In this document: positions 3,327-11,066 of the stretch, piece after piece
Numbering within the stretch: the first letter of the stretch is position 1
How the letters are laid out: each line of letters starts with the position of its first letter
Made by a program: the position numbers and the translations under genes
Source: Verrucomicrobiota bacterium
GTDB taxonomy: Bacteria > Verrucomicrobiota > Verrucomicrobiia > Limisphaerales > AAA164-E04
Direction: 5' to 3'
NCBI GenBank assembly: GCA_047947115.1
Contig: CP170459.1
Coordinates: 1,056,001 to 1,120,000, forward strand
Length of the DNA stretch: 64,000 nucleotides
The notes under the pieces: generated by a model
What the model was told of the DNA's origin: nothing
Database searches by the model: none
What the model saw: only the letters and a program-made list of their open reading frames with translations

Positions 3327-4628
3327 ATGCTTATGTCTTGTTTTTCAAAAGTTTTTTTGCAAATTGCACCGGAAGTTTCGGGTTCCGACCTGGCTGAGCT
3401 TCTAGGCAAATCGAAACCTTACATCGCACAGATCCGTACCGGAAAACGTATTCCTACCGATGAAGACGTCATTCTGTTGAGCCATCGCTTTGCTCCCAAC
3501 CGGCTTGAGGAATTGCTTCTAAGCGCTTATCTGGACCGTTTGACCGGCAAATCGTTCGATGATGCATCCTTGAAATCCAAGGGAGAGGCCACACTGAAAA
3601 AGCTGCTCACTCAGTTCCGTCCTGATAAGAAATTACCAGGCAAAAGAACACTGCGCGATTTTCCCGAACAATTCTCCCCCCTGGCGATCATCACCGGAGA
3701 CAAACGCGAAGTGCGGGGCCGACACATCGGCGCAGGAGATTTCGGCGTCCACATGACCACCACTGCAGACAGCAGATGGATCATGAGCCTCGGCCTGGAC
3801 AAAGATACGGTTCACTATATCGACAAGGATTTCGTCCTGTTGAGTGAGGAAGAACTTATCCATAGATTCTCGCATAGAAACCTCCTTGTCATCGGCAGCC
3901 CTGCAGTGAACCACCTCGCCAGACGCATAAACCGATCTTCGATTTTTCGATTTAATATCAACAGCGATGTGGATGAAGGTTTGGAGGAAATCATCCAACA
4001 GGCCAAGGAAAAATCGAAATCAAAAGATGAACTGGCCTTGTTTTATCAGGACTCGTCCGAAGACCTCACCAAACTGATGCGCTATCTGTTTGTCGGGGGA
4101 CTTTTTGACCCAACTTACCCTAAAGGCGACTACGTGACATCAACCTATCACAAAATGCCGGGCAACACGGACCTGGACTTCGGCGTTCTCTCATTCGCTT
4201 CCAATCCATTTTATGCCGCGAAATGTGCCGCCGAAGGTCGTCCCAACGATCATCAATTCGTGTCCATTTTTGCAGCAGGCATTCATCACCCGGCGACGGC
4301 TCACGCAATTCGCCAGCTGGGCAGTTATGGCAAAGAGAACGGGGTATTTGATCAGCACCCGTACGGAGGTGTCTTTCGTGTGGAACTGGATCTTGAACAG
4401 ACCTTTTTTTCGGACCGGGTGCGGGACGGGGTGTTCCAATGGGAAGACGACGCAGACGACCAACGCACGCCCATTGAAGACCAGGGGCAATGTTTGCTGT
4501 CCGAACTGGAATACATCGAAAACGAACGTCGATTGGAAAACCTCAACACTCTTCAACTCAAACCAGAGCACGCACTTGAAGCGCGACGGTTGGTGCAGTC
4601 CTTGATCAAAGCAGGAGGGACCCAATGA
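3327..4628 (+). CDS. XRE-type HTH protein with large uncharacterised C-terminal domain
   Basis: N-terminal SDLAELLGKSKPYIAQIRTGKRIP helix-turn-helix; C-domain motifs NLLVIGSPAVN and AGIHHPATA. Start could be 3333. Confidence 0.7.
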   Translation: MLMSCFSKVFLQIAPEVSGSDLAELLGKSKPYIAQIRTGKRIPTDEDVILLSHRFAPNRLEELLLSAYLDRLTGKSFDDASLKSKGEATLKKLLTQFRPDKKLPGKRTLRDFPEQFSPLAIITGDKREVRGRHIGAGDFGVHMTTTADSRWIMSLGLDKDTVHYIDKDFVLLSEEELIHRFSHRNLLVIGSPAVNHLARRINRSSIFRFNINSDVDEGLEEIIQQAKEKSKSKDELALFYQDSSEDLTKLMRYLFVGGLFDPTYPKGDYVTSTYHKMPGNTDLDFGVLSFASNPFYAAKCAAEGRPNDHQFVSIFAAGIHHPATAHAIRQLGSYGKENGVFDQHPYGGVFRVELDLEQTFFSDRVRDGVFQWEDDADDQRTPIEDQGQCLLSELEYIENERRLENLNTLQLKPEHALEARRLVQSLIKAGGTQ

Positions 4629-5656
4629 GAAAACGCCACATCAAGACATTTGCTTACCCCCGTGTGGGATTGGTTGGAAACCCGAGTGACGGATACTTTG
4701 GCCGAACCATTGCGTTCACTTTTAAAAATTTTAAAGCCGAGATCCTTTTGGGTGAGGACTCCACCCGCATCAGTTTCGTCAATCGTGAATCCGAGTTCGA
4801 TTCGGTGGAACACCTTTGCGACAATATCCAAATGCATGGCTATTACGGTGGCATTCGACTGCTCAAAGCGACCATCAAGCGGTTCCGGGATCATTGTTGC
4901 GATGAAGGATTGAAGGTGGATTTGGAGAAAAAGTTCAAGATCACCTACACCTCCAACATTCCCCAACAGGTAGGACTTGCCGGCTCCAGTGCCATCATCA
5001 CGGCCACCTTTCGGGCTCTGATGGAGTTTTATGAGGTGCAGATTGACAACACGATTCTGCCGAACTTAATCCGCGAGGTGGAAACACGTGAGTTGAAAAT
5101 TCCCGCCGGACTGCAGGATCGGGTCGTTCAAGTCTACAACGATCTGGTCTTCATGGATTTCAATCAGGAAAAAATGGACCGGGATGGATATGGTTTTTAT
5201 GAGCCCATTCAGGTCAAGACCATGCCCCGATTTTACATCGCTTACCGAGCTGATTTGTCGGAAGGCACGGAGGTTTCCCACAACAGGCTGCGTTACAAAT
5301 ACGATGAAGGCGACAAAGATGCTCACGACGCCATGAAGTTTTGGGCGGAGTTGACACTGACCGCGAAAAAGGCTTTGGAAGAAGACGATCAGGACACACT
5401 GTTCCAGTGTATCAATGCAAACTTCGACAAACGCAAAGAGCTCTACGAAAAACTCAAAGTCCACATGAAAGCGGAGCATCTTGAGATGGTTCAATGCGCC
5501 CGAGAAATGGGAGCCAGTGCCAAATTCGCAGGATCTGGCGGAGCCATTGTGGGCACCTATCGGAAGGAATCAGACTATCCGAAATTGAAAAAATACCTGG
5601 GCAGCAAAGGCATTCAGGTCATCAAACCCCGGTTCATCGAAGAAGAATTGTTATGA
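4625..5656 (+). CDS. GHMP kinase, glucuronokinase-like
   Basis: RVGLVGNPSDGYFGRTI, GYYGGIRLL, IPQQVGLAGSSA, AGLQDRVVQVY and KFAGSGGA match plant glucuronokinase motifs as recalled. Confidence 0.85.
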   Translation: MRKRHIKTFAYPRVGLVGNPSDGYFGRTIAFTFKNFKAEILLGEDSTRISFVNRESEFDSVEHLCDNIQMHGYYGGIRLLKATIKRFRDHCCDEGLKVDLEKKFKITYTSNIPQQVGLAGSSAIITATFRALMEFYEVQIDNTILPNLIREVETRELKIPAGLQDRVVQVYNDLVFMDFNQEKMDRDGYGFYEPIQVKTMPRFYIAYRADLSEGTEVSHNRLRYKYDEGDKDAHDAMKFWAELTLTAKKALEEDDQDTLFQCINANFDKRKELYEKLKVHMKAEHLEMVQCAREMGASAKFAGSGGAIVGTYRKESDYPKLKKYLGSKGIQVIKPRFIEEELL

Positions 5657-6534
5657 TCAAGAAAGCTGTCATTCCGGCCGCAGGATACGGTACGCGATTT
5701 TTACCCGCTTCCAAGTCGGTTCCCAAAGAAATGATCCCGGTGGTGGACAAGCCTACCATTCAATATGTCGTGGAGGAAGCCGTCGAAGCAGGTATCGAAG
5801 AAATCCTGATCGTTGTCAGCAATGGCAAAGACGCCATCAAACAGCACTTTTCCCCCAATGTTGAATTGGAAGCTCTCTTGGAAAAGAAGGGCAAAACGAA
5901 GGAATTGGAAGCCATGCAATCACTTTCCAAACTGGCAAAAATTCAATACGTCCACCAGTTGGAAATGAGGGGACTGGGCGATGCCGTGCGGTATGCGAAG
6001 GATTTTGCGGGCAAGGATCCGGTTGCTGTTTTGCTGGGTGACACCATTTTACGGTCTCACCGAGAGCAATCGGTCTTGAGATCAATGGTGGACATTTACG
6101 ACCAACATGGAGGATCGGTCATTGCCTTGAGAGAAATGCCAAGGTCCGTGATCAGCCGATATGGCGTCGTGGCATGTGAGCCAACAACGGAGGAAGGAGT
6201 GGTGCGCATCACTGGGTTGGTGGAAAAACCGGCTCCGGAAAAGGTCCCCAGCCTGCTGGCAGTCTCGGCTCGTTACATCATCACTCCCCGCATTTTCAAG
6301 TTCCTGGAGAATACTCAACCGGGATTTGGCGGAGAAATACAAATCACCGATGCTCTCAATGCCGTCGCTCAACTGGAACCCATGTCCGGATTTCAATACG
6401 ATGGCATCCGACTTGATATCGGAAATAAACTGGAGTTTATCAAAAGCAATCTGTTGCTCGGCCTCGAACGCCCCGACATGAAGGATGACCTCATGCAGTT
6501 TATCGTCGGATTAAATAAATCCGGCACTTGCTGA
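5653..6534 (+). CDS. galU: UTP--glucose-1-phosphate uridylyltransferase
   Basis: KAVIPAAGYGTRFLPASKSVPKEM, GLGDAV, VEKP, GGEIQITDA. ATGA overlap with the kinase sets the start at 5653. Confidence 0.9.
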   Translation: MIKKAVIPAAGYGTRFLPASKSVPKEMIPVVDKPTIQYVVEEAVEAGIEEILIVVSNGKDAIKQHFSPNVELEALLEKKGKTKELEAMQSLSKLAKIQYVHQLEMRGLGDAVRYAKDFAGKDPVAVLLGDTILRSHREQSVLRSMVDIYDQHGGSVIALREMPRSVISRYGVVACEPTTEEGVVRITGLVEKPAPEKVPSLLAVSARYIITPRIFKFLENTQPGFGGEIQITDALNAVAQLEPMSGFQYDGIRLDIGNKLEFIKSNLLLGLERPDMKDDLMQFIVGLNKSGTC

Positions 6535-6715: not shown

Positions 6716-6744
6716 TTGACAACACGCACAAGACATTAAACAAT
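6716..6744 (+). promoter_or_regulatory. Candidate sigma70 promoter
   Basis: TTGACA-N17-AACAAT downstream of a very AT-rich tract and upstream of the small ORF. Confidence 0.4.
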
Positions 6745-6793
6745 GCCTTTATTCGTGCGTGTCACTTTCAGGAAAGTTCGAAGAATACATTTT

Positions 6794-6952
6794 ATGGACA
6801 GCAATCGCCATCAACAGCAAAAGAGACTCGCGAATTACAGTAAACCCTGTCTACAGTGTATTGGTAATTTGGGAGATTTAACGTCCGGAGGCAGCGGTAA
6901 AAAAAGAGAAACCGTCAAAAGCACGTCGAAGAAAAAGAGGCAAAGAACCTGA
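6794..6952 (+). CDS. Lasso-peptide precursor-like small protein (52 aa)
   Basis: Leader YSKPCLQCIGNLGDLT fits YxxPxL..G..T; predicted core GGSGKKRE with Gly1 and Glu8. Confidence 0.65.
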   Translation: MDSNRHQQQKRLANYSKPCLQCIGNLGDLTSGGSGKKRETVKSTSKKKRQRT

Positions 6953-7008
6953 TCACCACTTGTTTGCTGCTCCATCGACCGGCTTCCGATCCCGGATCCC
7001 GATCGGAC

Positions 7009-7354: not shown

Positions 7355-8599
7355 TTAGTGAACCGGTGTCCATAGGATCTGTTCCAATAATTCTCTGGCT
7401 TTGACTAGGCACAACGGATCTCCGTCCCTTGCCAGTTTTTCGACTACTTTCAATTGAAGAGCCGTTGCCCGTACTTTACACCTCTGTAAATACGACAATG
7501 CAGAGAAGGCCACTTCCTGACTGCAGGATGATATCAATTCAAACAAGGTGTTTTGGATTTCTGAAGAGATTTCCTGATCGTAGGATAAAAACTGAACAGC
7601 CAACATCTGTATGCTTGGTGACGAATCCCCAGCCGCCATAAAAAAATAGGAAGAACCATCCTTCCAATTTTCATTGCCCTTTCTTGAACGCAACAAACCG
7701 AGATAAGCACTCTCACGAGTGATGTCATCCTCAACTTTCAGAAACTTAATGATCGTGGACTGGAATTGTTGAGTATTGATCACGGTCCCACGCATAAAGC
7801 GCAGAGCAATCTCAGAAAGATCGGGATGTTCCTTTTCAAACAACATGAAAAAAAAGGAATCAGAAAGTCCAAACATCAGAAATGAAAGTAATTCAGACTC
7901 CGGACTCACAGCTCCGGCAACCATGGGGGATGAGGAGGACAAAAGTGAATAGACAGGGATGGTCTTTAACGATTTGATCAGATCCAAATCCGATTCTATC
8001 AGCTTTTCCAGAAAAAAGCCGAACCGAGGCTCCTGCCAATGAAGGCCTGCCAAGACGAGAAAAGCTTGCCGGCGAATGCTCATACTGTTCCCATTATCCA
8101 GAATCGTCTGGGAAATGGATTCCCATGTCTGCTGATTGGAGATTTTCAGATGGAACAGAGATCGAAGAGCTGTATGCCGCATCCGTTGATCGGAATCGCC
8201 CAATTTCTCAAGCACCAGCGGAAAAGCTTTCTCCCCATGACCCGCCAATGAAGAACATGCAGCCAATCGAATCTGATCCGCCGGAGGAGAGGGAGCCCAG
8301 TGGGGAACCCTGGACTGAATTCCAACCGGCAATTTTGCCCAAATGCCCCGCCAGGTACTTATCAATATCGCATCACGTTGGTTGATCCGAACCGCAAGCT
8401 CCTCAAATGTGGGTTTTTCCTTGTTTCGGGGAATACTCAACCTCTTAAGATACCCATCCCCCAAGAACAGCAAAGAAACAAGCACAACCACCAAGTAAAT
8501 CCACTTGCGCTTGATCAATCCTTTTTGCCACGCAGGCATATGGTGATTTTGTGGGACCATGTGTTCACTTCTTTTATTGCATGATGTTCTCGAAATCAA
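7355..8599 (-). CDS. HEAT-repeat protein with N-terminal TM anchor
   Basis: TM segment, then HEAT-like units (LGDSDQRMRHTALRSL, GDSSPSIQMLAVQFL). Start uncertain. Confidence 0.65.
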   Translation of the reverse strand: MISRTSCNKRSEHMVPQNHHMPAWQKGLIKRKWIYLVVVLVSLLFLGDGYLKRLSIPRNKEKPTFEELAVRINQRDAILISTWRGIWAKLPVGIQSRVPHWAPSPPADQIRLAACSSLAGHGEKAFPLVLEKLGDSDQRMRHTALRSLFHLKISNQQTWESISQTILDNGNSMSIRRQAFLVLAGLHWQEPRFGFFLEKLIESDLDLIKSLKTIPVYSLLSSSSPMVAGAVSPESELLSFLMFGLSDSFFFMLFEKEHPDLSEIALRFMRGTVINTQQFQSTIIKFLKVEDDITRESAYLGLLRSRKGNENWKDGSSYFFMAAGDSSPSIQMLAVQFLSYDQEISSEIQNTLFELISSCSQEVAFSALSYLQRCKVRATALQLKVVEKLARDGDPLCLVKARELLEQILWTPVH

Positions 8600-10067: not shown

Positions 10068-11066
10068 ATGGCTCGGAAACTGCGCGTTGAATATGAAGGC
10101 GCCATTTACCACATCTTAAGCCGGGGCAACGGAAAGCAGGATATCTATCGAGACGCTAAAGACCGGAAGTTATTCTTAAAAGCCCTTGGAGAGACATGTG
10201 AGAAAACAGGGTGGCGCGTACACGCTTATTGTTTGATGAGTAATCATTTCCACCTTTGCCTGGAAACACCCCAGGCTAATCTGGTTGCTGGAATGAAATG
10301 GCTTCTTGGCACTTATTCAAGCCGATTCAACAGACGCCACAAACACTCCGGACATTTGTTTGCCGGTCGATACAAGTCCGTTATCGTGGATGGGAGCAGG
10401 AAGGGTTACCTGCACAAGCTTTGCGATTACATACACCTGAACCCGGTTCGGGCACACCTTGTTGCTGATGACCAGTATCTGAAGGATTTTCCCTGGACCA
10501 GTTATCCCTTGTACCTACTGCCTCCAACGCAACGTCCAAGCTGGTTGGAAACTCGTGTCCTGATGGGTGAAAAGGATATTCAAACCGACGACAACGCAGG
10601 CAGACAACGCCTCGAACTGTTGATGGAAAATCGGCAGTTGTGGGAAGAATCCAGGACAAACGAGGCGTATGATCTGATCCGAAGAAGCTGGCATTTTGGA
10701 ACGGATGAACACCGAAACGATCTCTTGTCAAAAATCGAAACCCTTGAAGGCACCTCCCGTTCTCCGGCTGGAGAAGTTGAAAGGGAAGCCCATCGGGTGC
10801 AGGCCTCTGATTTGCTCGAAGAAATGTTAAGGGCGGAAGGCATCACGGACCAGGACCTCATGACCATGCGCAAGGGAGATCCGGTGAAAATCAGACTTGC
10901 TATGGAAATACGCAAGCGCACCACCATGTCACTGAAGTGGATTGCCGAGCATTTGCATATGGGAACTTGGACTTATGTGTCCAATTTGCTTTCCACACAG
11001 CGGACAAAAAAACTTCAAGTATTGGGACTGCCACCAAGTGAATGGTTGAAGGCGACGGCGGATTGA
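10068..11066 (+). mobile_element. HUH Y1 transposase (IS200/RAYT-like) with C-terminal HTH
   Basis: YHILSRGN, AYCLMSNHFH (HUH), GHLFAGRYKS, DYIHLNPVRA. Confidence 0.88.

Follow-up and report, generated by a model that had tools for sequence, protein, structure and literature searches.

A freestanding lasso-type precursor gene in a Verrucomicrobiota genome, probably matured in trans by a single distant cassette

A short open reading frame in the Verrucomicrobiota genome studied here (G000) encodes a conserved lasso-type peptide precursor, and we put at roughly 0.7 the probability that it is matured in trans, by a single distant cassette, to a peptide with a Gly1-Glu8 ring that is probably phosphorylated at Ser3. 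The gene lies in a 64,000-nucleotide stretch of DNA, referred to here as the window, and maturation in trans is proposed because one complete cassette with an empty precursor slot is found elsewhere in the genome. The relevant features of the window are as follows.

6794..6952, plus strand: freestanding lasso-type precursor gene, 52 aa, recognised by homology and selection
6794..6886, plus strand: leader, residues 1-31, with the YxxPxL RRE-binding motif, Gly(-8) and Thr(-2)
6887..6949, plus strand: predicted core, 21 aa, with Gly1, Ser3, Glu8 and a Lys/Arg-rich tail
6716..6744, plus strand: candidate sigma-70 promoter, TTGACA-17-AACAAT, 10/12 matches, weakly indicated
6985..7007, plus strand: short inverted repeat 3' of the stop, terminator role unsupported

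The reading frame with lasso leader and core described in the initial annotation is present at 6794-6952 on the plus strand and encodes 52 aa. Its leader contains Y15-x-x-P18-x-L20, G24 and T30 at position -2, and thus the YxxPxL motif and Thr(-2) of class II lasso leaders, while the core has the corresponding small first residue, an Asp or Glu at positions 7-9 and no disulfide. The tail is as strongly cationic as had been claimed, with a net side-chain charge of +8 for the core of both the window precursor and its orthologue in G001; the window core has no Cys and ends in Thr. Ser3 is the predicted phosphorylation site and Glu8 the predicted ring acceptor, and the cyclised core has a computed mass of 2328.35 Da, rising to 2408.31 Da when one phosphate is added (2512.32 and 2592.29 Da for the paralog). 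No NCBIfam family matched the precursor at E 0.1. A strict leader/core pattern found two matches in the 6.08 Mb genome and 0, 0, 4, 1 and 0 in five shuffles; since the motif alone does not occur above chance, the reality of the gene rests on homology and selection.

Homologues sit inside the lasso clusters of three congeners and of many metagenome loci, in agreement with a lasso-type precursor. The leader residues Y15, P18, L20, G24 and T30 are unchanged in 10/10 aligned homologues, and G32, G33, S34 and E39, which include the core start, Ser3 and Glu8, are likewise unchanged in the aligned homologues. A search of the genomes of species with the single window peptide found only G001, whose orthologue is 87% identical and occupies the same site after galU. 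The two genes differ by 15 synonymous and eight non-synonymous changes, giving a dN/dS of 0.095 overall and 0.059 in the core alone, with 0.075 for galU and 0.044 for the GHMP kinase gene in the same comparison. In a close strain, seen in run X1, the 259-bp upstream spacer carries 15 substitutions and one insertion, and the reading frame a single silent change (Fisher p 0.007 versus the spacer). By these comparisons of sequence the window precursor is a real, maintained gene under purifying selection, its dN/dS being near that of galU.

Constraint of this order argues against one half of the original suggestion, that the gene is either matured in trans or a relic. A relic would be a spare copy that is no longer matured, with the other paralog of the genome, or neither, feeding the cassette; this would suit a gene lying megabases from the cassette and a family in which some database relatives look degenerate (P0003 and P0012, with Asp at core position 2, and P0013, with a read-through tail), but all leader and ring residues are kept here, and the reading frame is covered at least in part by RNA-library contigs in 4/4 runs, which were picked with this region and may include DNA (20/21 listed runs carry part of it, and four were examined). 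The G001 orthologue also speaks for a relic, in that no cassette gene was found in the G001 assembly; that assembly is 88% complete in 220 contigs and lacks the matching wzc as well, so that either the assembly has a gap here or the precursor is conserved in G001 although its enzymes are absent. We consider a relic very unlikely, and maturation in trans, with one complete cassette and an empty slot to account for it, is the half of the suggestion that stands.

A second in-frame ATG upstream at 6743 would give a 69-aa product, and was rejected; this codon is lost in the close strain (A6743T) and is not kept in G001, which makes 6794 the likely start. Of the two flanking signals initially proposed, the upstream promoter stands as a sequence match (10/12 at 6716-6744) and not as an excess over chance, with two promoter-like sites found and 2.5 expected in shuffles; its -35 box is kept in G001 and its -10 box is not. 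RNA-library contigs from 3/4 runs start at 6758, 6765 and 6771, just past the predicted -10 box, a weak hint in favour of the promoter from contigs that show neither strand, start nor level. The downstream hairpin at 6985-7007 exists as an inverted repeat, and its role as a terminator was rejected, since it shows no folding advantage over shuffled sequences (z -0.44), was not called in a terminator scan and is not conserved in G001, the nearest relative.

In both G000 and G001 the precursor lies downstream of galU in the same orientation, across the spacer already mentioned, which is AT-rich. The initial annotation had raised, as speculation, a link to the adjacent kinase and nucleotidyltransferase; by family these are a GHMP kinase and GalU, sugar-nucleotide enzymes, and in the two other congeners checked (G006 and G007) galU is followed by unrelated genes and no precursor. 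We rejected the link on these grounds of family and synteny: the two neighbours are likely bystanders, and the kinase partnered with this family is the HprK-like kinase of the distant cassette. The same observations bear on the possibility that the peptide acts without the cassette, either as a linear cationic peptide (nucleic-acid binding or antibacterial) or after modification by GHMP kinase or GalU. The core charge and the shared position after galU would accord with such a role, whereas the leader motif and Glu8 are under selection along with the tail, the 259-bp spacer separates galU from the precursor, and the neighbours lack a precursor after them in G006 and G007; we hold this possibility to be highly improbable.

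Several other features of the surroundings were recorded. An operon at 3327-6534 (+) comprises an HTH_3 regulator-like protein of 433 aa, with no family over most of its length, the GHMP kinase and GalU, and might conceivably serve a glucuronokinase-type salvage route. A HEAT-repeat protein of 414 aa is encoded at 7355-8599 (-) and is possibly truncated in G000, its G001 counterpart being one reading frame of 624 aa; in run X1 the gene has lost 14 bases at 8032. A transposase-like reading frame at 10068-11066 (+), resembling the REP-associated tyrosine transposases, occupies the same site in G001.

Beyond the window, two further loci of the same genome enter the argument.

G000:C1:4578876-4585454, outside the window: likely maturase cassette, with kinase, ABC exporter, nucleotidyltransferase, RRE, B2 and cyclase
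G000:C1:988651-988818 (L010:1480-1647): freestanding paralog precursor, 74 kb upstream of the window gene

In genome-wide searches every RRE, B2 and cyclase match fell outside the window, as the initial annotation had stated of the window itself, and the genome search that it recommended led to one B2, one discrete RRE and a cyclase-like gene, adjacent to one another at C1:4,582,854-4,585,454. This is the one set in the genome of the cognate RRE, B2 and cyclase that a class II lasso precursor calls for, and 3.52 Mb separate it from the window gene (2.56 Mb by the opposite route, should the contig be circular). Ahead of the three genes are a P-loop kinase, an ABC exporter and an opposite-strand PF14907 nucleotidyltransferase. 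Local profiles turned up just one kinase, nucleotidyltransferase, RRE and B2 of this type in the whole genome, apart from a further, marginal kinase match (E 6e-4); the second match of the cyclase profile is an ordinary AsnB. The B2 protein exceeds the curated cut-off of NF033537 (48.3 versus 33 bits) and retains its Cys, His and Glu. The cyclase retains SGGxDS and DGxDGD, and is without the Cys after Met that the ordinary AsnB of the genome has; it scores 128 bits on NF033535, under both the cut-off of 525 and the 177 of that AsnB, so it has been assigned by its context and motifs. The kinase carries a His / GxxGxGKS / DD motif and has no match to HprK models, which kinases from other loci match weakly in 8/9 cases, all below the cut-off. 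Other candidates were discarded: PqqD and asparagine-synthase matches at C1:407 kb, 1.835 Mb and 4.914 Mb have no adjoining B2 or RRE, and the asparagine-synthase gene at 1.835 Mb is an ordinary AsnB. The cassette sits in an exopolysaccharide locus, with wecA-like, wza and wzc genes upstream and wzm, wzt, methyltransferase and pyruvyl transferase genes downstream.

A profile search found only two family members in G000, the window gene and its paralog (48% identical, E 2.9e-5), both of them freestanding. A precursor is present in 4/7 other genomes of the genus. G003, G006 and G007 carry it within the cluster, where wza and wzc are followed by the precursor(s) and then by the kinase. The G006 contig stops within the kinase, and G003 and G007 continue with ABC exporter, nucleotidyltransferase, RRE, B2 and cyclase, as in G000. 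The wzc-kinase gap of G000 holds no precursor and no visible precursor remnant, and RNA-library contigs of runs X1 and X7 span the gap without an insert, so the empty slot is not an assembly slip. Judging from synteny, precursor copies likely left the cluster and the in-cluster copy was lost; a tree of 32 precursors, built on 34 columns, left 25/29 forks open, and the order of events is accordingly drawn from synteny only. Precursors also occur in G018 and G021 of the sister genus; the 13-15 kb surrounding them contain no cassette gene, and the B2 genes of these genomes lie at other places.

Three side observations concern these loci. Neither of the two alleles of the wzc-kinase junction in run X1 (L007:6752-6954; 1 and 18 differences) contains a precursor insert. 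The stretch around the paralog is AT-richer, with no long reading frame for 1.4 kb upstream; paralog orthologues in L058 and L135 have their downstream gene in common, and the upstream genes of L058 differ. A sister clade of freestanding precursors has Met/Gly-rich tails and a Trp after Glu8 (L043:7510-7707, L044:6763-7301, L137, L134, L102), and the genus of that clade encodes RRE, B2 and cyclase at another locus (L040-L042), without kinase or precursor.

By its sequence the window precursor belongs to a large unnamed family of GGSGxxxE peptides. A profile of nine precursors, searched against 1.84 billion proteins, gave 342 matching clusters at E 0.001, and the 10 homologues that we looked up are unnamed or "hypothetical"; the generic lasso-leader model NF033521 is passed by 7/55 homologues, and none of the 55 passes a named lasso family model. 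The best 150 of the 342 were inspected and two long repetitive proteins set aside. Among the remaining 148, Glu8 is found in 144 and Ser or Thr at position 3 in 137, the latter a partly circular count in that the profile and the DNA pattern favour a GGSG start; 86 of these cores end in Pro and 16 in Ser. Their median core charge is +2, with 12 reaching +6, against a median of +7.5 in the 40 nearest matches of a second search, which makes the very basic tail a trait of close relatives. Of at least 119 matches to a DNA pattern in metagenomes, 80 loci, often short ones, were retrieved, and in these local profiles found the kinase in 46, the cyclase in 40, the RRE and B2 in 20 each, the nucleotidyltransferase in 8 and wzc in 10. 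The kinase is the next gene downstream in 39/58 of the loci with room for it, and among the 25 loci of at least 7 kb, 18 have lasso genes, seven have polysaccharide genes and five have no cassette gene.

Two unusual precursor forms were also seen. A long subtype (L035:5656-5907; P0008, P0009, P0011, P0017, P0028) ends in a C-terminal block resembling GLF.P..(H)AKS..KRP after a variable linker, and in G007 is the first of two tandem in-cluster precursors. P0015 and P0043 (199 and 268 aa) have 4-5 tandem lasso-like leader repeats and acidic cores, and are unrelated to the GGSG family beyond the leader.

Under the preferred reading, the RRE would bind the YxxPxL leader, the HprK-like kinase would, by analogy with a characterized kinase discussed below, probably phosphorylate Ser3 of the core, and B2 would cut after the Thr-Ser leader end; somewhat more likely than not, the cyclase would join Gly1 to Glu8 and the basic tail would be threaded. 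The nucleotidyltransferase may then add a nucleotide or sugar to the phosphate, and the ABC pump would export the product. Structure prediction of the RRE with the precursor scored 0.54 versus 0.02 for the best control, with runs agreeing in at least 91% of contacts and a partner pLDDT of at least 51. The mark applied was reached by 51/78 solved and 2/108 mismatched pairs, and it was reached with a score of 0.60 or under by 5/78 solved pairs and by all four passing mismatches (of 180); the model lends the pairing weak support and, because similar complexes have been solved (TbiB1), indicates likeness only.

The product might be processed in trans and yet remain unthreaded, as a branched-cyclic or linear phosphopeptide, tag-like and nearer to the linear polyphosphorylated peptides; tails of low complexity and wide variety, cores of 21 to 59 residues among the nearest relatives, including one of 55 inside the G007 cluster, the lack of a conserved bulky plug residue in the aligned homologues and the poor score of the cyclase on the lasso cyclase model would all be in keeping with this. 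Glu8 is nevertheless present in 144/148 and, together with Ser3, in 40/40 of the nearest cores, a cyclase accompanies the precursor in half of the metagenome loci despite the shortness of many, and the cyclase motifs are intact in G000. Conservation of Glu8 and the presence and motifs of the cyclase favour the ring, and say nothing for threading; overall we regard an unthreaded product as unlikely.

The position of the cassette in a polysaccharide locus and the basic tail together suggest a capsule-associated peptide. A pyruvylated-polysaccharide locus houses the head of the cassette in 4/4 congeners where it was seen, and we tentatively propose, as the likeliest single role yet one less likely than not, that the product of the preferred pathway resides at the cell surface or in the matrix, where its Lys/Arg tail would bind the anionic exopolysaccharide that the surrounding genes produce. 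This is the weakest step of the account, as the long loci described above suggest: outside the genus most show no polysaccharide genes (7/25 have them).

Close homologues with a very short leader (proteins P0152-P0154) occur at loci including L123:9953-10081 (-) and L084:1196-1327 (+), directly upstream of a nucleotide-sugar epimerase, on contigs of 32% G+C. Neighbouring genes there match PHROG families for dUTPase, dNMP kinase, sigma factor, Hsp20, glycosyltransferase, sulfotransferase and HNH endonuclease, and from this gene content the two contigs are likely of phage origin. The part of these contigs that was covered has no capsid, terminase or cassette gene; the short-leader peptides comprise three variants on 12 contigs, the family patterns had no match in IMG/VR, and GenBank phages searched by tblastn with the phage-like peptide gave none. 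Phage-borne precursors, if truly such, fit a supply in trans. A bolder proposal, to which we give little credence, is that in these marine Verrucomicrobiota the Ser3-phosphorylated GGSGxxxE...RP family has become part of the capsule, its ring phosphate coupled via the nucleotidyltransferase to a sugar and its polycationic tail bound to anionic polysaccharide, and that the precursor is a free mobile gene that can be supplied in trans from any locus. Phages would exploit this with a short-leader copy of their own beside sugar-modifying genes, either supplying or blocking the host pathway and so altering the cell surface.

A literature search, from which most subscription papers fell outside, yielded no account of the GGSGxxxE family, of lasso precursors that stand alone and are matured in trans, or of lasso clusters within the capsule loci of Verrucomicrobiota; the RODEO lasso survey, also outside the search, may list the family or freestanding precursors. 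Four papers retrieved by matching terms (PMC13352647, PMC10664482, PMC11118758, PMC12710340) have nothing on freestanding or phage-borne lasso precursors in the matching passages, and the search covered main texts, so that the supplements of PMC10368454 and PMC13381572 may list such clusters. Lasso mining tools seek a precursor beside the enzymes, and would therefore score the cassette as precursor-less and the window gene as an orphan. In the congeners the pathway is seen cleanly as it stood before the split. An abundant lasso family without a name thus comes into view, in which the predicted phosphorylation of ring Ser3 lends itself to testing and which comes with a nucleotidyltransferase. 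The association of phosphorylated peptides with capsule loci, for which there is as yet no explanation, is also carried beyond Bacillota into Verrucomicrobiota. The surprise is moderate, all parts being of known types.

Supply in trans has a parallel in the prochlorosins, where one maturase, ProcM, serves precursor genes elsewhere in the genome, with lanthipeptide chemistry and many diverse cores, unlike the two similar lasso-type cores of G000. The general lasso route, in which an RRE binds the leader, B2 cuts, the cyclase forms the isopeptide and an ABC pump exports, is that outlined in the main text of PMC10368454. The paeninodin/pseudomycoidin type shares with the G000 cassette split B1/B2 proteins, a cyclase, an HprK-like kinase and a nucleotidyltransferase, PsmN being proposed to add a sugar or nucleotide to the phosphate; its kinases (PadeK, ThcoK, SyanK and PsmK) need a C-terminal Ser (PMC9266682), which the window core lacks and 3/93 family cores have. 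Clusters of this type are often found in capsular polysaccharide loci (PMC13381572). The LPPs resemble the G000 system in their YxxP leader, RRE, HprK-like kinase acting on core Ser3 (LppK), NTP transferase, MsbA-like pump, capsule loci and highly variable C-termini, and for both LPP and paeninodin loci the main text reports the capsule location with its role unknown (PMC13381572). They differ in using a signal-peptidase-like protease and no cyclase, and in belonging to Bacillota; the G000 cassette has B2 and a cyclase, its cores keep Glu8, and the window leader is without the HQxIxFET extension.

The closest system is Bsf of Bradymonas sediminis FA350, whose cluster comprises bsfA, B1, B2, C, D, K and N and whose kinase, BsfK, is described in the main text as phosphorylating ring Ser3, tolerating Thr there, aided by the RRE and acting on a precursor without a C-terminal Ser (PMC10368454). 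The same seven gene types occur in G000, including the motif-bearing kinase, PF14907 nucleotidyltransferase and ABC exporter of the cassette; the kinases share the His / Walker A / Asp-Asp motif, a match by published motif only, and the window core likewise has Ser3 and ends in Thr, with no C-terminal Ser. Since this family mostly lacks the C-terminal Ser that the paeninodin-type kinases need, BsfK and LppK act on Ser3 and the G000 kinase has the BsfK motif, we infer phosphorylation at Ser3. Differences from Bsf are the leader residue at -2, which is Ile in BsfA and Thr in G000, placing the window precursor outside the Ile(-2) group, the strongly basic tail, the setting of the cassette in an exopolysaccharide locus, and the location of the precursor, which is within the cluster in Bsf and megabases away for both G000 copies. 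What is new is the arrangement, an intact cassette without a precursor and two freestanding precursors, with congeners that show the joined state.
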